Numbered from the stretch's first letter, positions 33,550 through 43,828 are shown. The stretch: 64,000 nucleotides of DNA from Polyangiaceae bacterium (GCA_050287085.1 JBNKBE010000015.1:96001-160000), one strand, 5' to 3'. Notes: a model not told the origin generated them from the letters alone. Made by a program: numbers and translations.

Positions 33550-36159
33550 TCAGGCCGAGTCCGCTAGGGGCTCTGGCTCGACAAGTTCTTTCAAGCGGTT
33601 GAGGTTGGCGCCCGACTGAACCGATCTGAGAACAAGCGCCAAGAAGGGCGCCATGTTCAGCAGCAACAGTAAGCCAGAGTCCGCATCTCCGAGGGGCGGA
33701 CGGATGACGCCTCGGACGCACTCAACGTTGTCGTTGACCGCCACCCGAGCCTCGAGCTCTATGCTACTGAGAGGAACGTCGGCTACGTCGCCGAGTTCGT
33801 CCACGACCAGGCCTACGTATCCAGCGCCGTGCTTGACAACGACAACTTGAGAAGGAGTGGCGGTTGAAGTGCGGTCAAAGCCTAGCTCCAGAGCGGCGTC
33901 GAGAACAACCGCCGTGGTATTGCGATAACGCATCACGCCTCGCACCGTCTTGGGACAAGTAGGAAGCAGCGTGATATGCGGGGTGGCTATCGCCTCCACC
34001 ACGTCCTCCGCCGGCAAGCTAAGCCAAAGATGTCCGATGGCAAATGAGGCGACCGCGAGGGTCGGCTCCCCGTCAACGGGTAGCCTCAGCCGCCCTTTGC
34101 TGCGTCGCTCAGCGACCGAAACACTCGTGACGTCCTCGGCGAGATCAAAAAACGTGATCGCAATGATGTCGTTCTTGTAGCTGTCGCTGCTCGACTTGTA
34201 CTCCCGATAGCCTGCAGAGCACGTTGCAGCGACCGAATACAATCTGCCCTGGAAAGGGATAATGTCATCGCAAGTGGCTCCTGGCGCCACTCCGAAGAAT
34301 GACCGATCCAGCTCCAGCTCGCTCCCCACCGCAATACGTTCATTCGAACAGGCTAAGACTCTTCGGTCACGCCCAACAAACACCGCAAAGTTCCGGCTTG
34401 CCCCGCGCGCTGCCTTCGGCAGGGCATCCCGGAGCATCTGCTTGAACTGGGGACCGCTGTCGAAAACCAGCCCGATTCCGCCCACGACCTGGCCCGATTG
34501 CGACAGAACTGCAGCTCCGTAGACGTAGGTGGACTCCCCGCCGTAGAGAGGCGTCGGCTGAAACGCCGAGACCGCGTAGCACTGCGGATCTCGAAGCCGC
34601 AGCACCTGCGCGACGTCGCGCCCCTCTAGTACCGTACCGACGAACGCCTGGAGCTCGGGCGTGGACACAGAAACCACCGTGCCGTGGGCGTCGTAGAGCA
34701 CAAGCGCCGTGTAGACGGTGTACAAGCCGTTTATGTAGGCCAACGTCTTGTCGAGAAGCGCCACGTCGGCGCGACTCAGCGAGCCTGCCGCCAGAAGCTC
34801 TCGAAACGACGTCGTTAAGGCCCACCAACGGCAGTCGTTGGCTCGCTCGTAGAGGTTGCGATCCATGATGTCGATCGCGAGGGCAGAAGTCGCCCTGGCG
34901 TCCTCGATGACGCCGCCAAGCACGGTCTGATAGAGGTCCCCTATCGCGTTTTCGAATACACCCTTGGTTCGACCGCCCGTCGCCGAGATCTCCCGAAGCA
35001 ATACCCTCGTCGCGGTATCGGTGCTCGTCCCCACGGCGGCCCCAGGCCTCACGAGATGCCCGTTCCACACGGTGCGATCGAGCTCCTTCTGAACCCCTTC
35101 GGCCTTGCCGGCAATCTCGCGCAAAGTCACCGAGAAAAGCTCGTCACTATGAGAGATGAGCTCCATGGTTCGCTCGTCCACAGAGCGGGCGCCCCGCGCA
35201 TGCTCGAGGAAAGCGTGCTCGATGGGAACCAGTGCGCACCCCATCCATCCGGGACCCTCGTATCCCTGGTAGCCCGTCGTCCGGCGCGCCCCGACCAGGT
35301 ACAGGCGCCCGCCGAGTCGGACGGTATGGTCAGCGCCATCGACGTCCAGACGAGTCCCAGTCGGGAGCTGCAGCGGATCACTGGTAGCCACCACATGTCC
35401 CTCTCGCGAAACCAAACACAAGAGCGTCCAGTCTCGGGGCGCTCTTAGATTTCTGAAAACGCCTGCCAGCTCGTCTTGAAATCGAAATACCAAGCACAAT
35501 ACCCCAACGCGCCCCTCCGGACCGACCACTCGATAGGCGTAGATGAGCGACTCGATTTCGTCGGGGGCAAGCACGCTCGGGCCAAAGTACTCCACATAAG
35601 GCTCGCTCGTGCATCGTGCCTCGTGCACGTAGGGATCCTGGCACGTGTCCAAGGGTCGGTCGCTACGTGATCTGCAAAGCACCTCCCCCTCCGTGCCCAG
35701 CAATACCACATCGCTATAGACCGAATACTTGGCTCGATAGGCGCGAAATCGCTCGGCCAACGCTTCCCGTTCCGGTGCTGCCTGCTGGACATCTCGATGC
35801 CGCAGGAAGGAGCATGTCTCCACGTCTGTCGCCAAGAACCCGATGTCTGCCGTGCGTTCGAAGAGATTCCGAATGACGATATCGATCGCCACCTGGGCCT
35901 TGAATTGGAGCAGCCGCTCGTACTTGCGGAGGCTTTCGAGTGCCAGGTTGGAAATCAGCTGATGCGAGAGCGTCGCAAACTCCTCCCGCGTCGCGGTCAT
36001 GTCAGCGCCACTTCCGCAAACCTGGCCCAGAATGGTGAGCAAGTCCCACTGCTGACCAAGAACGGCGAGGCGCTCTCGCACCAGTTCAACGTCCAGCATG
36101 TAGGGAATGACCGCCCGCAGTTGCTCGGGGATCTGGATACCTTTGTAGTCGACGTTCAT
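33550..36159 (-). CDS. Soluble double-Cache-like plus C-terminal CheW domain protein
   Basis: Two repeats (AIDIVIRNLFERTAD / AIDIMDRNLYERAND); CheW signature 'VVEA...LP...VRGVMRYR...VLD...GLVVDELGDV'; no TM seen. Confidence 0.8.
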   Translation of the reverse strand: MNVDYKGIQIPEQLRAVIPYMLDVELVRERLAVLGQQWDLLTILGQVCGSGADMTATREEFATLSHQLISNLALESLRKYERLLQFKAQVAIDIVIRNLFERTADIGFLATDVETCSFLRHRDVQQAAPEREALAERFRAYRAKYSVYSDVVLLGTEGEVLCRSRSDRPLDTCQDPYVHEARCTSEPYVEYFGPSVLAPDEIESLIYAYRVVGPEGRVGVLCLVFRFQDELAGVFRNLRAPRDWTLLCLVSREGHVVATSDPLQLPTGTRLDVDGADHTVRLGGRLYLVGARRTTGYQGYEGPGWMGCALVPIEHAFLEHARGARSVDERTMELISHSDELFSVTLREIAGKAEGVQKELDRTVWNGHLVRPGAAVGTSTDTATRVLLREISATGGRTKGVFENAIGDLYQTVLGGVIEDARATSALAIDIMDRNLYERANDCRWWALTTSFRELLAAGSLSRADVALLDKTLAYINGLYTVYTALVLYDAHGTVVSVSTPELQAFVGTVLEGRDVAQVLRLRDPQCYAVSAFQPTPLYGGESTYVYGAAVLSQSGQVVGGIGLVFDSGPQFKQMLRDALPKAARGASRNFAVFVGRDRRVLACSNERIAVGSELELDRSFFGVAPGATCDDIIPFQGRLYSVAATCSAGYREYKSSSDSYKNDIIAITFFDLAEDVTSVSVAERRSKGRLRLPVDGEPTLAVASFAIGHLWLSLPAEDVVEAIATPHITLLPTCPKTVRGVMRYRNTTAVVLDAALELGFDRTSTATPSQVVVVKHGAGYVGLVVDELGDVADVPLSSIELEARVAVNDNVECVRGVIRPPLGDADSGLLLLLNMAPFLALVLRSVQSGANLNRLKELVEPEPLADSA

Positions 36160-36350
36160 GTCCAGCCTGCCGCGGTTCATCCCTGACGCGTGAACACGAT
36201 AACGGTCGCTTGCGGAGGCAAGATTAGATGGCTAGAAGCGACATCACCCCGGCTCGCCAACAGCCAGCGCCCAGCGGAGCCCGCCCTTGGGCCGCCGATC
36301 TGGCGGCCCCGACTTACCTTGCCCGACAGGTCCCCTCCTGAATAGGCTCG

Positions 36351-37877
36351 TTAATACATATAGCCGAAACCCGCATTCAGCTGGAGTTCGTCAAGTCCAC
36401 GCTTGCGATCGCGCAACTGGATATCCGTCTTGAATGCAACCTGTCGCGCGGGGCGATAGGTGAGCCCGGTCGTCAATTCATTGACGCGCAGCGCCAGATT
36501 GCGGCGATAGCCCCGCGGAACCGCCGCCTGATTGTCAACGCGCTCAAGCCGGGCAAAAGGCACCAGTTGGTGCTGCGTCTTGAGCGGGTGCAGGACGTCG
36601 TAGCCCAGCTCTAGGTAGCCACCTTGCATCCGCATAGGCACCGCCCCGGTCCGCCCAACGTTGGGAAAGAGCGCTATGCCATCCGCCCGCCGGGCGTTGA
36701 GCAGCGCGCCGGCTTCGGGCATCCAGAACGCTACCGCCAGCGCCTTTGCCTCCCATCCTCGCCGGAGCACGCGCGCATGGAACGACGCCCCGTAGATGGG
36801 AAAGAATAGGTCGACGGGCTTTCCCCGACTCGTGAAGAAGTCACCGTTGCCCCCCGCATCTCCGGCATAACCCGAGGCCCCCACAATGACCCCAAGAGTC
36901 GGTTCGTAGTCCAAGCGCCCTGTCAGGGCTCCCGCATTGGCCGGGGCGAAGGAACCCATGCTCCTCCCGCCGACAAAGCCGTCCGGTCCGAGTGCCTGAG
37001 GTGAGACCGTCGTGACCCAATAAGCCGTGTACTCCAACTGATCGCCGATGTGCCCGGTGAACCCGACTCCGAGCTCGCGCCACGTGGTCGGAATCAGATT
37101 CCGATCCAGATTGGGTCGCTCAACACCGTGAAATACCGGCGGCTCGTGCCACTGATTGATGAGCCCAATCGGCATCAGCACCAACCCAGCGCGCAGCGTA
37201 AGATACTGCTCCACAAGCGACCAGTCCAGATAGGCCTGCTCCACCTCAACCGAGCCTCGACAGGAAGCGCACGCGATTGCATTTTCCCATTCCAGCTCAG
37301 CGGAAGTCAGAATGTCCTTGGTTAGCTGGTGGGTGACCAGCAAGACCAATCTCCGAACGGTAGCGGTCGTATCAAAGTCCCCGTCAGCCCCCCGCCGCAA
37401 AGAGGTGAGGTTCAGCTGCGCGTAGCCGCCCAAGACGGTGTTCTCACCTTCCACCCGCCGCGTCATGCGCAAGATGCGAGCGCGTTCCTGCTCCCGCGTC
37501 TCGACAGCTGCAACTTCGTCGGGTAGCTCGATGCTCGGCCCCGCTCCGCCCGATTCGGCGACTTCAACCGACAGCCCGTCGCCCTCGGACTCAGCCAACT
37601 CGATGATCGGACCGTCTGCAGGTGGCTCGTCCGCAACAGCCGCCTCGGCGGAGACGGCCTCGGCGGAGGTGGCATCCGCAGAGGCGGCATCGACAGCGTT
37701 GTCGTCCGCACCGGATGATCCATCGCTAGCGGCGTTGATGGCCGCTGCATCCCCAGTGTTCTCCTCGGAAGGGGCGGGTTGCTGCTCGTTGGACCCAAGG
37801 GTCTCCGCCATCAGAGCCGCCGGCGCTACCAGCTCCCAAACGAACGCAACCAGGATAACGCGAATCAATGACAACAT
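36351..37877 (-). CDS. Outer-membrane porin (OprO/OprP-like)
   Basis: Signal peptide, acidic linker, 'LGGYAQL','ELEWE','VEQAYLD','HEPPVFHGVERP','IPTTWRELG', C-terminal GFGYMY. Confidence 0.8.
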   Translation of the reverse strand: MLSLIRVILVAFVWELVAPAALMAETLGSNEQQPAPSEENTGDAAAINAASDGSSGADDNAVDAASADATSAEAVSAEAAVADEPPADGPIIELAESEGDGLSVEVAESGGAGPSIELPDEVAAVETREQERARILRMTRRVEGENTVLGGYAQLNLTSLRRGADGDFDTTATVRRLVLLVTHQLTKDILTSAELEWENAIACASCRGSVEVEQAYLDWSLVEQYLTLRAGLVLMPIGLINQWHEPPVFHGVERPNLDRNLIPTTWRELGVGFTGHIGDQLEYTAYWVTTVSPQALGPDGFVGGRSMGSFAPANAGALTGRLDYEPTLGVIVGASGYAGDAGGNGDFFTSRGKPVDLFFPIYGASFHARVLRRGWEAKALAVAFWMPEAGALLNARRADGIALFPNVGRTGAVPMRMQGGYLELGYDVLHPLKTQHQLVPFARLERVDNQAAVPRGYRRNLALRVNELTTGLTYRPARQVAFKTDIQLRDRKRGLDELQLNAGFGYMY

Positions 37878-38554
37878 CAGAATGAATCCAAATTCAGCAC
37901 CTTAGACAAGACCGCGTCGTTGGCGGCGCTGCGGTGGCAATCGTTGCAATCCTGTTCCAGGATTTCCTCGCTACCATCGGCGGCAACAATAGCTGTGCGA
38001 TAGCTTTCGCCGTCGGGCGCGTGTTCGCCCCCCCACAGCAGCGTCACATCCCCGCTCTTATCCAGCGCCAATTCGAAAAACTGCCATTCGAAAGCGCCAC
38101 TTGCATTGAACCCCGCACCGCGCTTGGCCATCGCGTGCACCTGCCACGAGGTCATATTTGTATTTGGCGCAACGGTCTTTACGATGATGGTTCCTACTGG
38201 GAACGTATCCTGCCCCGGCTTTGGCAGAGCATTGATGTAGATGCGCTTCTCGCCGGCACTCTCAGGATGAAGATGATCCCCCTTGCCCAGGGACGCGCTC
38301 GGCCAGGAGCGAAAGTCGAGAAAGTTGCTCTGCAAGGCGATGAAGGCCGAGAGCTCCCCGAGCTCCACGCTCTCGCCCTTGCTAAACGCCGCCCGACCTG
38401 TTTTGCCGACTCCCGCATCGGAGGACGAGGAATCCGGCCTCGCGGTGACTTGCTCTGAGAGGACGAAGCTTCCTTCAGTATCGAGCTGATCGTCCAAACA
38501 CCCGCTAGCAAGGCCCATTATTAGGAGCGACGAAACAAGTCGTGAATGGGTCAT
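37877..38554 (-). CDS. Monoheme c-type cytochrome lipoprotein, P460/c'-beta-like
   Basis: Lipobox ASGC; 'FPVGTIIVK','MAKR','WQF'; C-terminal CNDCH. Confidence 0.65.
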   Translation of the reverse strand: MTHSRLVSSLLIMGLASGCLDDQLDTEGSFVLSEQVTARPDSSSSDAGVGKTGRAAFSKGESVELGELSAFIALQSNFLDFRSWPSASLGKGDHLHPESAGEKRIYINALPKPGQDTFPVGTIIVKTVAPNTNMTSWQVHAMAKRGAGFNASGAFEWQFFELALDKSGDVTLLWGGEHAPDGESYRTAIVAADGSEEILEQDCNDCHRSAANDAVLSKVLNLDSF

Positions 38555-38566
38555 AATCGAGCGTCC

Positions 38567-39679
38567 TTACTCCGGCAGACTCGCAATACCGAGTAGTTCT
38601 GCCGCGGCCAACATACTGGCCGCCAGCGAGCCCTTGCTCGCGCCGTCCGCCTCGTACGACAGTCGTGAAAACAACTTTCCATACGGAGTGTCGAGATCGT
38701 CGGGGCTGGGGTCTTCCGGGTCCCAGCCTTCGGGCACGGAAGGGATCGCATCGCCTTCAAATCCGTCATAGAAAGCGCTCACGCTATCAAAGCCGTCCAA
38801 TATGTCCTCCGCCAACGATTTGCCAGCTTTCTTCGCCTCCAGCCACGGGACGAATGCCTCGAAGACCTGGCGCCCCCCCACCAGATTCGATCGCATGTCG
38901 CCGAGCGTATGCCCCGCGTAGCGGGATTCATCTTCCCCTGTCGCGGCCAACGCAACCTTCTCCACTTGCTCTTCGACCGAACCGATCACGCCACGAAATG
39001 CCGCCGGAGCATCCAACGCCAGTGGCTCGAATTGGTCCACCATCGCAGCTGCATCGTCGACCAGGCGTTGGACGAGCTCGTCGCGAAAGCGCTGGGCCTC
39101 TTCCTTGTCCTGAGGAAATGCCGCCGCCACGTAGTTCGGTAGCACACTCTCAAACGCGACCACCTGCTCCGGGTGAGCATCCGCCCACAGAATTCGCTCG
39201 ATCGCGTGTATTCCGATCACGCCCTTGCCGTCGAAGAGATCATCATCCGCCTTCTCTTCGATGAAGCCATCGTAGCGTTCGTCGGTCGAGGCGTCGTAGT
39301 TGGGAAAGAGCACGGCGATCGCCCCCTCCGACTTTTCGTACGCCGCACGCGCGTCCCGCCACGCGTCCCGCATAGCCGCGACAGCTTTCTTATCGTCGCT
39401 GGCGTTCCAACCATCATCGTCGGGCTCCGGAGCTGCGTCCTGCAGCGCCACTGCGGCGGCGTGCAGGGCTGCAAGCTGGTCTGCGATGTAAGTCTTGACG
39501 TCAACGATGGCCGCCTCTTTGAGCTCGCTCTCGCCCCCCGTCGGGCCAGCTTTCGGCTCGTCCTGGCTCCCACCGGCGTCTGCGGTATCGATACCCAAAT
39601 CCTCGTTAGAATTGCCGCAGCCCGTCAGCAGCAGGCCTAAGGCAAACGTGGGAACCGTGAACTTGATTATTACTTTCAT
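38567..39679 (-). CDS. Imelysin/EfeO-EfeM (peptidase M75 family) iron-binding lipoprotein
   Basis: Lipobox LTGC; 'ARAAYEKSE','GIHAIERILW' (GxHxxE), 'TGEDESRYA'; ATG at 39679 with AGGA RBS. Confidence 0.88.
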   Translation of the reverse strand: MKVIIKFTVPTFALGLLLTGCGNSNEDLGIDTADAGGSQDEPKAGPTGGESELKEAAIVDVKTYIADQLAALHAAAVALQDAAPEPDDDGWNASDDKKAVAAMRDAWRDARAAYEKSEGAIAVLFPNYDASTDERYDGFIEEKADDDLFDGKGVIGIHAIERILWADAHPEQVVAFESVLPNYVAAAFPQDKEEAQRFRDELVQRLVDDAAAMVDQFEPLALDAPAAFRGVIGSVEEQVEKVALAATGEDESRYAGHTLGDMRSNLVGGRQVFEAFVPWLEAKKAGKSLAEDILDGFDSVSAFYDGFEGDAIPSVPEGWDPEDPSPDDLDTPYGKLFSRLSYEADGASKGSLAASMLAAAELLGIASLPE

Positions 39680-39683
39680 TTTC
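39665..39683 (-). promoter_or_regulatory. Fur-box-like site overlapping the imelysin start codon
   Basis: GAAAATGAAAGTAATAATC, 14/19 to GATAATGATAATCATTATC by manual count. Confidence 0.55.
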
Positions 39684-39728
39684 AATTCCTAGCTGGATAG
39701 TGCGTCTTGTCTTGAACGAAAGCCCTGC

Positions 39729-41021
39729 TCAGAGAGTCTCGACGAAACGGATGAGCGTTTGCTGCTCTGCGTCAGACAATGCTTCGAAGGCCCGCACGGA
39801 CCCGTTGGCTTCTGAGCCTTCTGACGCATGGGCAGCGATGGCCTGACGTACGGTCTCTGCGCGCCCGTCGTGCATGAAGCTCTTGAGCAAACGGATCCCC
39901 ATCAAAGGCGCGGTTCGCCACTCATCACCGCGGGCACTTCCGTCTTCCATCCCGTCGGCGAGGTCAACGCCCATCGAATGAAGCAACATGTCGGTGTAGA
40001 TGGCAACTGGACCGGCAGCCCAGGCCGCGATCGGGTAGTCGGGATCGGTGGCCAACTCGGGCACGTGGCACACCGCGCACTTGGTCTCCGCAAAGAGCTT
40101 CGCGCCGTCGTCGCTTGCTGGACCGCGACTGGGGATCCGGAGCAGCCTGGTGTAGTCCCCAATGTCATTGACGAGCTTCAAGTCGACGTCGACGCCAGTC
40201 CGCTCGTCGTCCTCTGCGCCCGCTGGATTGGGCAGCTCTTCCGGCCGGAGCGGCGAGGTCATCCCCATGTCCCCCTGCAGAGCGTCTGCCGCAAACTCGT
40301 CCAGAGTCGCAATGCGCGCTTTGAGACCGAATCGCCCGATCAGTCCCTCTTGCCCTGGCTTGAAGTGCTGAAACTCCGAGTCCGTATTGGCTTCCGAGGC
40401 GTAGCGGACGCGATTGATACGTCCGGAAATCCCGTCGCTGCGCTTCGCCTGCTCTGCTTCGAGCCGTTCTATCTCCTCGGCGGCCACCGCCTCCATCGCG
40501 CCGCGGCCGAATACGGCGGGCCCTAGCCTTGACGTCACCAGCAAGCCGGGAACATCGTCCTCCGGTAGATCGATACCCGCGTAGACCTCGGGTGCAATCG
40601 ACTGCGGGCGTACGGTATGGCCAAATGGAAACGCGCTTTGATCCGCCGCGGGCGTCCATCCGTCGTCGTCAACTCGAATCATCTTGCGGACGGCGCCGGG
40701 CCCGCGGGCGTCGTCTGCGTGACAGGACGCACACGAATGACGAATGTAGACCGGACCGAGCCCCTGCGCCGGCCGAAATACCGTCTCGAACCCAACGTCA
40801 CCCGCGTCAAAACGCTTCATCCACTCGCCGCTCAACGCCGGAAGCGGATTGTCCGACGGATCCTCCGATACCAAGGTGATCCCGTCGAGAGCGCTCGACC
40901 CGGCATCCGGGCCAGCGTCCGCGTTTCCGGTGCCGGTGGGGGCCCCGAGCGGGCCAGACGCGTTGCAGGCCGCGAGCAAGTGACAGGCGGATAGAGAGAG
41001 CGTTAGCCCCAATCGGGTCAT
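39729..41021 (-). CDS. Di-heme oxidoreductase (DHOR) family lipoprotein
   Basis: Lipobox LAAC; GLGP..SCASCH, GRFGLKA, CAVCH, YTDMLLH, EWRTAPLMG, HDGRA. Confidence 0.9.
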   Translation of the reverse strand: MTRLGLTLSLSACHLLAACNASGPLGAPTGTGNADAGPDAGSSALDGITLVSEDPSDNPLPALSGEWMKRFDAGDVGFETVFRPAQGLGPVYIRHSCASCHADDARGPGAVRKMIRVDDDGWTPAADQSAFPFGHTVRPQSIAPEVYAGIDLPEDDVPGLLVTSRLGPAVFGRGAMEAVAAEEIERLEAEQAKRSDGISGRINRVRYASEANTDSEFQHFKPGQEGLIGRFGLKARIATLDEFAADALQGDMGMTSPLRPEELPNPAGAEDDERTGVDVDLKLVNDIGDYTRLLRIPSRGPASDDGAKLFAETKCAVCHVPELATDPDYPIAAWAAGPVAIYTDMLLHSMGVDLADGMEDGSARGDEWRTAPLMGIRLLKSFMHDGRAETVRQAIAAHASEGSEANGSVRAFEALSDAEQQTLIRFVETL

Positions 41022-41099
41022 AGCGGTTTCTTTGCGGGGACGGAGCAGTATTGCAGAAGTTGGGTTGGCCATGGATCTCACTCAGAGCTTATTGTTCTT

Positions 41100-41118
41100 G
41101 CGAAGCACTTTCAATAAC
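41100..41118 (-). promoter_or_regulatory. Weak Fur-box-like site in the divergent intergenic region
   Basis: GTTATTGAAAGTGCTTCGC, 11/19; shares the TGAAAGT core with the 39665 site. Confidence 0.3.
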
Positions 41119-41245
41119 GCCATACGAGTGGTGTGGCTGTCAAGGACGAGAAAGAACTCGGCAGATTCTGCGCATGTCAGGCGTACTGTTACCGTGTAAG
41201 CTCCAATTCGAGCTTCTCGGCGCCGAGCTGATTCGGCCCCTTGAG

Positions 41246-41264
41246 GAAAATGCAAATCATGAGA
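41246..41264 (+). promoter_or_regulatory. Fur-box-like site overlapping the FMN-binding gene start
   Basis: GAAAATGCAAATCATGAGA, 13/19. Confidence 0.4.
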
Positions 41265-41807
41265 CGGAACCTTCTTGTTGTCCTATTGCTCACCTGCGTT
41301 GGACTTAGCTCGCCCGCTTTCGGCAAGGTGTACTTCACGGTCAAGCAGCTGTTAGGGCAGCACTTTCACGATGCCAGTCGCGTCACATTCCGGCGCATTC
41401 CGGTGACTGGAGCCCTCAAAGCCACCCTGGAGCGACGCTTGGCTCGGACGGGATTGAAGAACGAGTACGTCGTCTATGTGGCCCTGCGCGGTGATGATGC
41501 TCTCGGATACGCCGTATTCGATCAGGAACTGGGTTTGCACGAGAAGATCGACTTCGCGACTTTCTTCGATGAGCGTGGCGTGATCACGCGAGCCGAGGTT
41601 GTCGCCTATCGCGAGGGACACGGTGCTGAGATTCGTCGCGACAGCTTCCGGCGCCAATTCGTAGGACGAAGCGCGAAATCGGGCTTTCGGGTGGGAACCG
41701 ACATCGACTCCATCAGTGGCGCCACCATCTCCTCCGAGTCGATGAGTCGCGCCGTCGAGCGCGCGGCCGTGCTGCTCGAAGTGGGGGTGCTAGCCGAGCA
41801 ACCATGA
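41259..41807 (+). CDS. Exported FMN-binding protein (RnfG/NqrC-type flavinylation motif)
   Basis: Signal peptide; 'YREGHGAEI...FRRQF', 'IDSISGATISS'. Confidence 0.88.
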   Translation: MRRNLLVVLLLTCVGLSSPAFGKVYFTVKQLLGQHFHDASRVTFRRIPVTGALKATLERRLARTGLKNEYVVYVALRGDDALGYAVFDQELGLHEKIDFATFFDERGVITRAEVVAYREGHGAEIRRDSFRRQFVGRSAKSGFRVGTDIDSISGATISSESMSRAVERAAVLLEVGVLAEQP

Positions 41808-42382
41808 GAGACTTCGAACGGTCGAGTCGACTGAGCCGGCTCCCCACCACCGCCCGGCTCGTCTATTCTGGTTTTCTTGTCTACACGCTCGCGGCGTTGG
41901 CCGTCACGGTGTGGTTGACGGATAGCGTCGTCGGTTTGCGTCTCGAGCGCGTCTCCGAATACTACGCGGGCGCGGCGCCCGCCTCCGGACCGACGCCAAG
42001 GGATACAACGGAGGAGGCCGGCCCCACCCTAGACCTCCCGGAAGACGTCGCCTCGACAGCAACGCCAGCGGTAGAGCCCAAGCCATTGCGCTCCGTTCTA
42101 GAGGTAACGCATTTTCACCTGTTTACTATGCCGCTCTATTGGATGGTCTTAGCCCATCTCTACGCGCTTGCGCGTGCTCACCGTGGCCAGGCGTGGGTCA
42201 TCACGATAGCGGGCCTATCCGTTGGCGCGCATCTGCTTGCGCCGTGGTTCGCGCGTAGCGCCCTGCCAGGCGCCAAGCTCTACTACGCCGCAAGCGGGCT
42301 ATGCCTGGGGGTGAGCTTCTTGTGGATGGCGGTGGTCGCGCTGGCTGACCTCTGGCGTCCTACTAGCAAAGCGCGCACTTGA
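41804..42382 (+). CDS. 4-TM His-rich membrane protein of unknown function
   Basis: ATGA overlap with the FMN-binding gene; 'LEVTHFHLFTMP','LAHL','GAHLL'. Confidence 0.7.
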   Translation: MRDFERSSRLSRLPTTARLVYSGFLVYTLAALAVTVWLTDSVVGLRLERVSEYYAGAAPASGPTPRDTTEEAGPTLDLPEDVASTATPAVEPKPLRSVLEVTHFHLFTMPLYWMVLAHLYALARAHRGQAWVITIAGLSVGAHLLAPWFARSALPGAKLYYAASGLCLGVSFLWMAVVALADLWRPTSKART

Positions 42383-42412: not shown

Positions 42413-43828
42413 CTAACCCCAAAGCCGACGTAGCCCCTGTGACAATTGCTCGCGACTCGCCCCGGCGACGCTCAGGCGCACAAAAGCTCCGGGGGCCTCG
42501 GCTGGAAACCAAAGCCGACCGGGCGTCAACGCCACCCCGGAAGCCAGCGCCGCCTGTACAAAAGTCGCTTCATCCATTTCCGGCGCAAGCTCGAGCCACA
42601 AGCTGAAACCTCCGCTTGGACGACTTTGTAGATGGACCGGCGTTTCGTGCGTTCGCAAATATCGAACGACAAGGTCCGTGCGAGCAGCGAGCTCCTGTTG
42701 CACTCGCTGCAGGTGGCGAAGGTATGACCCCCGCGAAACGAACTCAAGCGCAGCCCATTGCATCGGTCCGGCAACGAAAAAGTCCTCGAGCAAGCGGGCT
42801 CGCTTCAGGCGCGTCATGATGGGACCACGCGCCACGATCGCCGCCACCCGCAGGCTGGGAGCCGCTGCCTTGGTCAGCGAGCGTACGTAGATCACGTGTC
42901 CGTCGTCAGCGTGGCAGAGCGGGGGCGGCGGCTGCCCCTCATGCGACAGTTCACGCGCGTAGTCGTCCTCGATGATGAACGCACCAAACTCGCGCGCGAT
43001 ACTGAGCAGCTCCTCGCGCCGCTGCAGTGCCATACTCACACCGGTAGGATTGCTGTAGGTCGGCTGGCAATAGATGACGCGCGCGCCTGAATCGAGCAAT
43101 AGAGCCCGCAGAAGATCGGTGCGCATTCCTTTGCGATCACACGGCAACGGAAATAGCTGCAGGCCCAGCGCTTCCCCCAGGGATAGCGCTCCGACATAGG
43201 TCGGGGACTCCACGATCAGACCGTCTCCGGGCTGCAGGAGCCCACGAAATATCGCACTGAGTGCCGATTGCCCCCCGGGAACGATCAATACGTCCGACTC
43301 CGAATAACTCGGGCCGAGAGCACGCGCAAACCACTGCCGCAGTGCCGGAATGCCTTCCGTTGGCACGCGCTCCCAAACGTCGCGCCGGGAGAGCGCCCGA
43401 CGCATCGCCAGGGCCAGTTCAGCATGAGCTTGCAGCGCTGAATCTGGATAACCACTACCCAATGGTAGAACCCCCGCGTGCGGCTCGCTCACCAGTTGCG
43501 CCAGATCGCGCGCCGGACTGCGCGGCCCCAGAAGCAGCGCTTGCCAGTCCAGATCGGCCGCGGAAACCGCCCTGGGAGGCGCAGCCACAAAGGTACCCCG
43601 CCCGGGTTGGGTCACGATATGCCCTTCCCCCTTGAGCTTCAGCAGCACCCGGGAAACGGTAACGGGACTTGCTCCGTAGCGGCCCACCAACTCGCGCACC
43701 GAAGGCAGGCGCTCGCCCTCCTGCGAACCGTCAATCAGTTCGCGCAGCGCCTTCTCCACTCGTTGCGCATTCGACCCTTCGGAAACGGACTCAGAACGGG
43801 CGCGTGAAGAACGTGTGGGTGGCGTCAT
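42413..43828 (-). CDS. MocR/GabR-type GntR regulator (HTH plus PLP aminotransferase-like domain)
   Basis: 'ERLPSVREL','PGRGTFV','VESPTY','NPTG','IEDD','SLTK...LRV'. Confidence 0.93.
   Translation of the reverse strand: MTPPTRSSRARSESVSEGSNAQRVEKALRELIDGSQEGERLPSVRELVGRYGASPVTVSRVLLKLKGEGHIVTQPGRGTFVAAPPRAVSAADLDWQALLLGPRSPARDLAQLVSEPHAGVLPLGSGYPDSALQAHAELALAMRRALSRRDVWERVPTEGIPALRQWFARALGPSYSESDVLIVPGGQSALSAIFRGLLQPGDGLIVESPTYVGALSLGEALGLQLFPLPCDRKGMRTDLLRALLLDSGARVIYCQPTYSNPTGVSMALQRREELLSIAREFGAFIIEDDYARELSHEGQPPPPLCHADDGHVIYVRSLTKAAAPSLRVAAIVARGPIMTRLKRARLLEDFFVAGPMQWAALEFVSRGSYLRHLQRVQQELAARTDLVVRYLRTHETPVHLQSRPSGGFSLWLELAPEMDEATFVQAALASGVALTPGRLWFPAEAPGAFVRLSVAGASREQLSQGLRRLWG

Follow-up and report, generated by a model that had tools for sequence, protein, structure and literature searches.

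The stretch of DNA considered here, which we call the window, comprises 64,000 nucleotides of one strand from a Polyangiaceae bacterium (GCA_050287085.1 JBNKBE010000015.1:96001-160000), and all positions are counted from its first letter. Between 36351 and 42382 it holds six genes in two divergent arms, which an original prediction, made from the sequence alone, took for a redox-coupled iron acquisition system. The features of the locus are the following:

36351-37877, minus strand: porin of 508 residues, as indicated by its AlphaFold2 (AF2) model, Foldseek and alignment

37521-37613, minus strand: two copies of GPx[IL]E[LI][AP] in the N-terminal extension of the porin, from alignment and motif search

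37877-38554, minus strand: monohaem lipoprotein of 225 residues, assigned to the cytochrome P460 family, with one CNDCH

38567-39685, minus strand: imelysin (M75-only) lipoprotein, PF09375, with GIHAIE

39664-39678, unstranded: weak Fur-type box TGATTATTACTTTCA over the imelysin start region, position weight matrix score 15.8

39729-41081, minus strand: DHOR (DUF1111) di-haem lipoprotein, PF06537, with CASCH and CAVCH

41099-41113, unstranded: degenerate Fur-type palindrome TGCGAAGCACTTTCA in the divergent intergenic region, position weight matrix score 14.2

41241-41807, plus strand: exported FMN_bind protein, PF04205, with SGAT

41715-41726, plus strand: codons of the predicted flavinylation motif S159-G-A-T162, within the FMN_bind gene

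41804-42382, plus strand: four-transmembrane (4-TM) inner-membrane protein of 192 residues, Aq_1264_TM (PF27139), with four helices in its model and five histidines

42020-42040, plus strand: codons of the predicted periplasmic-loop motif GPTLDLP (4-TM residues 73-79), within the 4-TM gene

The four minus-strand genes follow one another in the order DHOR, imelysin, P460-family lipoprotein and porin. The gaps between them are 43, 12 and -1 bases, all under 50 as had been predicted. The FMN_bind and 4-TM genes run divergently from the DHOR operon and overlap each other by 4 bases. The six gene identities first proposed were correct: all six open reading frames lie where they had been placed, and domains, motifs and models agree with them. 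Translation of the imelysin likely begins at the ATG at 39679, and that of the DHOR at Met21, near 41021. A scan of the locus for promoters and terminators gave matches no more numerous than in shuffled sequence.

Do the six genes make up one conserved system? The survey seeded with the P460-family protein covered 40 relatives, or 41 genomes with the source. A P460-like gene occurs in 11 of the 41, DHOR, imelysin and P460 are found together at 10 of the 11 P460 loci that were fetched, and at 8 of the 11 this triad stands alone. We conclude that DHOR, imelysin and P460 form a module, called A here, which usually occurs by itself and is a variant of the known imelysin/DUF1111 operons. The survey seeded with the 4-TM protein drew on one genome for each of 185,579 species and gave 201 relatives, nearly all from metagenome-assembled genomes labelled Myxococcota/Polyangia; 80 loci were kept. 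The FMN_bind gene directly precedes the 4-TM gene in 77 of them, and the remaining three end at a contig edge. A porin homologue is present in 32 of the 80 and directly beside the pair in 26, the adjoining trio occurring in three orders (porin, FMN, 4-TM; FMN, porin, 4-TM; FMN, 4-TM, porin). The FMN/4-TM set, with or without the porin, is found without the triad at 77 of the 80 loci.

We also sampled 251 genomes of the phylum, each at least 85% complete, with a porin threshold of E ≤ 1e-10. These counts are descriptive, related genomes not being independent. The 4-TM protein is present in 71 and the porin in 95. By hand tally, 65 of the 71 also have the porin, which lies less than 5 kb from the 4-TM gene in 52 of them and at 10-15 kb on one contig in five more. 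Among the 180 genomes that lack the 4-TM protein, 30 have a porin match, mostly a weaker one. At distant loci the order is porin, FMN-like gene, 4-TM in 12 cases out of 13. We conclude that porin, FMN_bind and 4-TM protein constitute a real, conserved unit, module B, that recurs across the phylum (Myxococcota).

If the two modules are usually separate, what joins them in the window? All six genes occur together in three genomes of one genus, the window's own and those of loci L001 and L002; these two are the only P460-seeded loci with the six genes in the window's arrangement. In a fourth genome (L014) the porin lies behind the triad, 6 kb from the FMN/4-TM pair. At all four loci the porin follows the P460 gene. 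Because of the synteny of the 4-TM-seeded loci, we assign the porin that closes the DHOR operon to the FMN/4-TM unit. It is the porin that ties the two arms together, its family elsewhere adjoining the FMN_bind/4-TM pair and sharing their operator. The link between the arms that the original prediction had drawn is sound in this respect, the porin of the DHOR operon belonging to the FMN_bind/4-TM family set; the six genes are not, however, one co-conserved system, and the co-occurrence across genomes that had been proposed as a check is restricted to the three genomes named.

What kind of porin is shared in this way? No Pfam family matches it even at E ≤ 10, and a search of solved structures with a profile of the porin alignment gave nothing useful. 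The AF2 model has a mean predicted local distance difference test score (pLDDT) of 73.7, mostly 80-96 in the barrel, and shows 16 strands across residues 147-507. Model and alignment place a signal peptide and then a disordered acidic N-terminal extension (residues about 15-145) before the barrel. With this model Foldseek retrieves PorB, OmpC, OmpU and OprP at about E 1e-12 with target TM-scores of 0.6-0.67, and atlas features point to Porin_O_P-like clusters. Conservation is strongest in INQWHEPPxFxGVERPxxDxxIIPTTWRE, the loop that joins strands 5 and 6; in classical porins the loop between these strands makes the constriction. On the strength of the model we take the protein to be a porin of the general 16-strand diffusion type, with an inward loop between strands 5 and 6.

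The porin and the 4-TM protein have a peptide in common. The motif GPxΦ[D/E]ΦP, followed by acidic residues, occurs both in the N-terminal extension of the porin and in the 4-TM protein, where it lies in the loop that connects TM1 to TM2; the charge distribution predicts this loop to be periplasmic, like the porin tail. The copies in the window are GPIIELA (residues 89-95) and GPSIELP (113-119) in the porin, and GPTLDLP (73-79) in the 4-TM protein. In its strict form the motif is found in 23 of 64 4-TM reading frames, in 9 of 21 porin reading frames and in 3 of 1055 others from the related loci, all three of the latter being mis-called FMN/4-TM reading frames. Where both proteins are encoded (45 loci), both carry the motif in 22 cases and neither in 15; the 4-TM protein alone has it in 8, and the porin alone in none. 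Odd spellings match genome by genome: L026 and L039 pair LLLP with ILLA, L072 has IDLA in both proteins, and L080 has IEVPPE in both. The motif is specific and co-varies between the two proteins. The simplest reading is that the 4-TM loop and the porin tail dock one common periplasmic partner, which we take to be the FMN protein because it is the only other constant member of module B.

The FMN_bind protein (PF04205, 37.5 bits; cut-off 22) has a signal peptide that can be read from the sequence as ending in ..SPAFG, with K as the next residue. S159, G160, T162 and S164 are invariant in an alignment of 39 homologues. With its domain, export signal, [S/T]GA[S/T] site and an ApbE encoded in the genome, it fits the class of ApbE-flavinylated proteins, and it would itself be expected to be flavinylated. 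A precomputed assignment places the 4-TM protein in the new Pfam family PF27139, Aq_1264_TM, which has 611 representatives at E ≤ 0.001 among 1.84 billion proteins; in our literature search the name Aq_1264 turned up in no paper. Its model (pLDDT 86) is a four-helix bundle. The TM2 motif LEVTHFHLF..MP..H holds H103, H105 and H118, and H143 lies in TM3; R96, E100, H103, H105, P110, H118, H143, P147 and W148 are invariant in the window's subfamily. A profile of the family found nothing among solved structures.

Where is the ApbE, and what other iron genes does the source genome hold? The assembly measures 6.2 Mb and is 96.8% complete. The original prediction had noted the absence of FTR1, EfeB, a TonB receptor and ApbE from the window, and had proposed that apbE and feoB or efeU be sought in trans. 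ApbE is encoded on another contig (C1:304971-305816), in an nqrABCDEF-apbE operon, and feoAB is likewise present in trans. No match to FTR1 (PF03239) or DyP (PF04261) was found anywhere in the genome. There are nine TonB-dependent receptors, none of them in the window.

Turning to module A, the DHOR is a clear member of its family (PF06537, 161 bits against a cut-off of 22, E 4.8e-47), with haem sites CASCH at residue 117 and CAVCH at 335 and the lipobox LSAC; the Pfam search gives it a putative-peroxidase annotation. A DHOR relative of another form is encoded at 5357-7699 of L111 (G000:C11), a 780-residue protein made of two DHOR-like halves with four CxxCH sites, near genes for an extracytoplasmic function (ECF) sigma factor and an EF-hand protein. 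The imelysin (PF09375, 58.2 bits against 23.5; lipobox LTGC) shows only an M75 domain in Pfam, and at 52.3 bits it is far under the cut-off of 270 of the NCBIfam EfeO equivalog NF041757. Its GxHxxE motif, which the passages drawn from Xu et al. (2011, PMC3143127) describe as the functional-site motif of imelysins, is GIHAIE at residue 158.

The third member of the triad is harder to place. The monohaem lipoprotein has its CNDCH at residue 203, near the C-terminus, and scores 16.5 bits (E 0.012) against PF16694, under the cut-off of 27. PF16694 is carried by 14 of its 43 homologues, and when a profile of 33 family members was compared with solved structures, P460 entries made up 9 of the 11 matches (best E 3.5e-4). 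Because of these three results, the weak match, the homologues and the structure profile, we assign the protein on sequence grounds to the cytochrome P460/c'-beta superfamily. The profile alignment sets its invariant K126 (GTIIVK) against K61 of 9hrk, numbered Lys78 in 6HIU, and Lys78 is given in the text drawn from PMC12352625 as the haem-crosslinking lysine of M. capsulatus P460. The c'-beta-type chain 7ead has Phe at the aligned position. The C-terminal CxxCH and the lysine at the predicted crosslink position suggest a protein of P460 type rather than c'-beta type.

Is the cluster under the control of iron? The FMN proteins share the N-terminus MKxVFN. The DNA behind it is a palindrome, written in AT-rich codons (AAA, GTT, AAT) of low frequency in these GC-rich genomes, and at several loci the palindrome sits in non-coding DNA. 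The rare codons and the non-coding copies indicate a constraint on the DNA and not on the protein, and MKxVFN was accordingly ruled out as a protein feature. TGAAA-N5-TTTCA occurs 60 times in the 1,313,921 bases of related loci, where by our own estimate from base composition about 0.1 copies would be expected. Fifty-four of the sites are at FMN gene starts and six at porin gene starts, with none elsewhere; the box-bearing porins include some that lie 8-9 kb away from the FMN/4-TM pair. The extended consensus is AATTGAAAATCATTTTCAATT / GAAATTGAAAATCATTTTCAATTTC, and the box is also written as TGAAAAnnnTTTTCA and as TGAAAATCATTTTCA-type sites. The classical Fur 7-1-7 core is TGATAATnATTATCA, from which the core of the lineage box differs at one symmetric position only; the lineage spelling equals that of the actinobacterial Zur box. 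The E. coli Fur 19-mer was abandoned in favour of the lineage palindrome, since it matches at most 14 of 19 positions anywhere in the source genome and start codons are overlapped by its matches at the locus.

In five other genomes the palindrome occurs at one to four sites each, against none or one for a control pattern. In three genomes the extra sites precede operons of MtrC/MtrF-like multihaem lipoproteins with cytochrome b. At L104 (1-9742) and L105 (3459-9923), from G045 and G046, and also at G047:C34:2179, the palindrome lies about 60-80 bases before such operons; the lipoproteins at L104 and L105 have MtrC/MtrF-like domains and 10, 8, 7 and 9 CxxCH sites, and L104 has a cytochrome b gene among them. 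At 7939-10651 of L106 (G042) the order is a FUR-family gene (PF01475, E 5e-34), the palindrome and a gene for a cytochrome c::FTR1 fusion. At 8556-9965 of L107 (G045:C6) there are two M16 peptidase genes, and the palindrome runs across the start (MKRIF..) of the first.

The source genome itself has one FUR-family gene. The exact half-sites TGAAAA..TTTTCA are nowhere complete in it, the best match being 11 of 12, so that its regulon can be read only from weaker matches to a position weight matrix, which was built from the lineage sites and gives these training sites scores of at least 24. The matches of interest are the following:

rank 1, C26:49793, score 20.4: before genes for a beta-propeller lipoprotein, a second imelysin and an HTTM protein

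rank 2, C2:202968, score 15.9: 20 bases before feoA-feoB

rank 3, window 39664, score 15.8: imelysin start

rank 5, window 41099, score 14.2: DHOR/FMN intergenic region

Good boxes are present in the orthologous intergenic regions of L001 (TGAAATCGACTTTCA, 25.4) and L002 (TGAAAGTCATGTTCA, 25.6). At triad-only loci the box candidates are weak (1.2-9.3). We predict that Fur controls module B throughout and, in this genus, the joined locus as well. Fur-like boxes had originally been proposed on both arms, which is borne out only in part. Degenerate boxes do stand in the shared intergenic region (41099-41113) and at the imelysin start (39664-39678); the match at the FMN start (41246), 13 of 19 positions by the E. 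coli consensus, scores only -1.2 with the lineage matrix.

The first-ranked site opens a second imelysin cluster (L108 4994-9761; C26:55847-56719), in which the box is followed by genes for a DUF5122 beta-propeller lipoprotein, an imelysin of 463 residues and a membrane protein resembling HTTM/vitamin-K-carboxylase; a TonB-dependent receptor gene comes after them. Our literature search found no paper joining imelysin and HTTM. Other neighbours deserve brief mention. In the largest FMN/4-TM clade (L021-L059) the FMN gene has upstream of it divergent genes for an ECF sigma factor, a zf-HC2 anti-sigma factor and a DedA/VTT protein, and downstream are genes for a 121-residue protein of no named family and a GFA-family protein. 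In the window, directly downstream of the porin gene, 33550-36180 (minus strand) encodes an 876-residue protein with a weak Cache-like region and a C-terminal CheW domain. On the other side a MocR/PdxR-like GntR-aminotransferase regulator gene (42413-43828, minus strand) converges with the 4-TM gene; it is not kept beside the module at other loci.

How might the two modules work? We read the locus as two conserved envelope modules, predicted to be repressed by Fur and likely to act together on iron, and we put the probability of this reading at roughly 0.45. As a genomic unit the locus is well supported; the mechanism is a prediction. Iron shortage would probably switch the cluster on, and its products would likely change the redox state of iron in the envelope before uptake. 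Derepressed by iron limitation, module B would provide a route of assimilatory ferric reduction. Electrons would cross the inner membrane by way of the 4-TM protein, probably via b-haem on its conserved TM2 histidines, and the FMN protein, flavinylated by the ApbE of the nqr operon, would accept them. Docking of the FMN protein on the GPxΦ[D/E]ΦP motifs of the 4-TM loop and the periplasmic tail of the porin would put the reductant at the mouth of a channel that admits iron species, where incoming ferric species would be reduced. Fe(II) would then enter via FeoAB, encoded elsewhere behind the same type of box. In this genus, module A has come to lie between the genes for the FMN protein and the porin; it would rely on that porin and likely on the same source of electrons, the imelysin binding iron and the haems changing its redox state. 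Taken to its full extent this would be a trans-envelope flavin relay: a flavoprotein, held by a co-evolving motif between a dedicated porin and a new class of haem protein in the inner membrane, would bring electrons from the respiratory chain to the mouth of the channel and in this genus would also feed the DHOR/P460 haems and imelysin-bound iron. We put this fuller version forward tentatively and regard it as doubtful. If true, the flavin relay would make a sixth class of membrane electron transfer linked to flavinylation, and the first to possess a porin of its own.

A number of observations weigh against joint action on iron. The modules are separable, the triad and the FMN/4-TM sets mostly occurring apart: at nine of the 11 P460-seeded loci no FMN, 4-TM or porin match is nearby, and the triad is present at only three of the 80 4-TM-seeded loci (the contigs of L001 and L002, and L014). 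A reductase and a putative peroxidase or ferroxidase make no obvious pairing in one system, and the P460 enzymes are known for hydroxylamine oxidation and not for iron chemistry. The window's own boxes score 14.2 and 15.8, where the training sites reach at least 24. That at 39664-39678 may be compositional, since it overlaps AT-rich first codons, and with boxes as weak as these the iron regulation of this locus rests mostly on its orthologues L001 and L002. The box might also serve another Fur-family regulator, its spelling being that of the actinobacterial Zur box. The iron link of the original prediction is kept through the predicted Fur-type operator, and the boxes of the window itself are degenerate. 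Could the two arms then be independent neighbours, the triad handling periplasmic peroxide or reactive nitrogen (hydroxylamine, NO) and the FMN/4-TM pair some other redox task, with an adjacency that is incidental? The triad stands alone at most of its loci and so does the pair, K126 is the aligned counterpart of the lysine that forms the crosslink in true P460 enzymes, the DHOR is annotated as a putative peroxidase, and triad-only loci have none but weak boxes, from 1.2 to 9.3. We nevertheless think such independence improbable. In four genomes the triad operon has taken in a porin that elsewhere belongs to the operon and regulon of the FMN/4-TM pair, the divergent region shared by the arms bears a good Fur-type box in both L001 and L002, the second imelysin cluster bears the best box of the source genome, and imelysin/DUF1111 operons elsewhere are iron-regulated according to the passages drawn from PMC3143127.

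The proposed electron path meets its own difficulties in the 4-TM protein, for which no relation to known membrane cytochromes could be detected. Pfam, in a set without PF27139, gave no match at E ≤ 10, Foldseek with its model gave nothing at E ≤ 0.001, and VIA-align gave generic four-helix bundles only, with a best Z of 8.6. Distant members keep E100, H103, H105 and H118 and have Asp or Glu in place of H143, and this set of histidines and carboxylates suits a metal site as well as it does haem ligation. At the distant trio loci (L113-L125), too, 7 of 13 FMN-like proteins have xG[AS]T (AGST, AGAT, VGST) and not [ST]GA[ST], the threonine being retained. The 4-TM protein might therefore be no electron carrier at all, an alternative that we judge unlikely, but an oligomeric metal permease of the inner membrane with Glu100, His103, His105 and His118 lining its path. 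The trio would then be a complete uptake route, in which iron passes through the porin, meets the FMN protein, which reduces it or hands it on, and crosses the 4-TM oligomer. In its favour are a ligand set typical of metal sites and kept family-wide, with the exchange at H143 being for an acidic residue, the want of any relation to known b-cytochromes, the failure to find an FTR1-family gene in the source genome, and the FTR1 fusion preceded by the box in one genome, by which iron permeases belong to the regulon. Yet a flavinylated periplasmic protein needs an electron source, and the conserved trio contains no other. With four helices and the ligands on essentially one of them, a pore would need oligomerisation; FeoAB, with its own box, already serves Fe(II); and histidines set 13 to 15 residues apart on one helix are reminiscent of bis-haem helices. 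Might the electrons instead be bound for the outside? Module B would then be a dissimilatory or extracellular conduit, the flavoprotein counterpart of the porin-cytochrome complexes, passing electrons out via the barrel to multihaem cytochromes at the surface. The three genomes whose sole further box copies precede MtrC/MtrF-like lipoprotein operons with cytochrome b speak for it, as does a motif that connects inner- and outer-membrane parts. The 16-strand barrel with its L3-like inward loop, however, resembles the diffusion porins and would be too narrow to sheathe a protein in the way that MtrB does, and in the source genome the boxes stand at feoAB and at imelysin clusters, which are assimilatory genes. 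We consider a conduit very unlikely.

How does the locus, read as two modules acting on iron, compare with known systems? Its closest relatives on the side of module A are the imelysin/DUF1111 operons PA4370-PA4373 of P. aeruginosa and VC1264-VC1266 of V. cholerae, which are Fur-regulated in the account taken from Xu et al. (2011, PMC3143127). As there, an imelysin lipoprotein is paired with a DUF1111 di-haem protein and no EfeU, and the iron (Fur) regulation reported for those operons is predicted for ours. Unlike them, the present operon has a P460-family haem lipoprotein in place of a second imelysin as its third gene and a porin at its end, and an FMN_bind/4-TM pair diverges behind the same box. 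With EfeUOB/M the locus would share an M75 protein with GxHxxE and a periplasmic haem enzyme acting on iron; the source genome differs in having no detected EfeU/FTR1 or DyP-type EfeB, and its imelysin reaches 52 bits where the EfeO cut-off is 270. We take the MtrCAB-type porin-cytochrome conduits to resemble it in their envelope-spanning parts and, in some genomes, in a regulon shared with multihaem cytochromes, and to differ from it in that the barrel here is of the 16-strand diffusion type and the periplasmic carrier is presumably a flavoprotein and not a decahaem protein. The monohaem lipoprotein appears to share with cytochrome P460/c'-beta the fold family, the CxxCH near the C-terminus and the lysine aligned with McP460 Lys78; it differs in its lipoprotein nature, its long N-terminal linker, the DHOR and imelysin genes that accompany its own, and its sub-cut-off Pfam score (16.5 against 27). 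No paper joining imelysin and P460 was found in the literature search.

On the side of module B the comparison is with the flavinylation-associated iron reductases. In the iron reduction predicted for them, flavinylated extracytosolic proteins have membrane cytochromes (PepSY-like, MsrQ-like, DUF4405, FezC) as partners, and for DUF4405 and FezC there is biochemical support for haem binding, as the passages drawn from PMC8238504 and PMC11334425 describe. Module B resembles these systems (PepSY-like/DUF2271, MsrQ-like/FMN_bind, DUF4405, FezC) in setting an exported flavoprotein of ApbE type beside a small His-bearing membrane protein, with a link to iron. It departs from them in that its membrane partner is Aq_1264_TM, which has no detectable relation to theirs in sequence or fold, in the dedicated porin, and in an ApbE encoded outside the cluster. 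The searched passages of PMC8238504 and PMC11334425 contain no mention of a porin that we found, nor those of the 2021 paper any of imelysin or DHOR. Already in print are the pairing of imelysin with DUF1111 and its Fur control (PMC3143127) and, as predictions, the flavinylated proteins that work with membrane cytochromes in iron reduction (PMC8238504, PMC11334425). The Aq_1264_TM partner, the dedicated porin and the joint operator and motif were not found in literature searches that covered main texts, the supplementary tables of the flavinylation papers lying outside the search. What the present locus adds is the fusion with the DHOR/imelysin/P460 triad, the operator consensus and the co-varying motif.

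Few systems are known that feed electrons to extracytoplasmic redox chemistry, or that take up iron without siderophore receptors or FTR1-type permeases. The locus points to a conserved unit of three parts, a porin, a flavoprotein and a small His-bearing membrane protein, in about a quarter of the sampled genomes of the phylum, and a clear operator and a shared peptide motif make that unit directly testable. The imelysin/DHOR pair, itself poorly understood, is here wired to a defined porin and a likely source of electrons, which offers a handle on the role of the pair.

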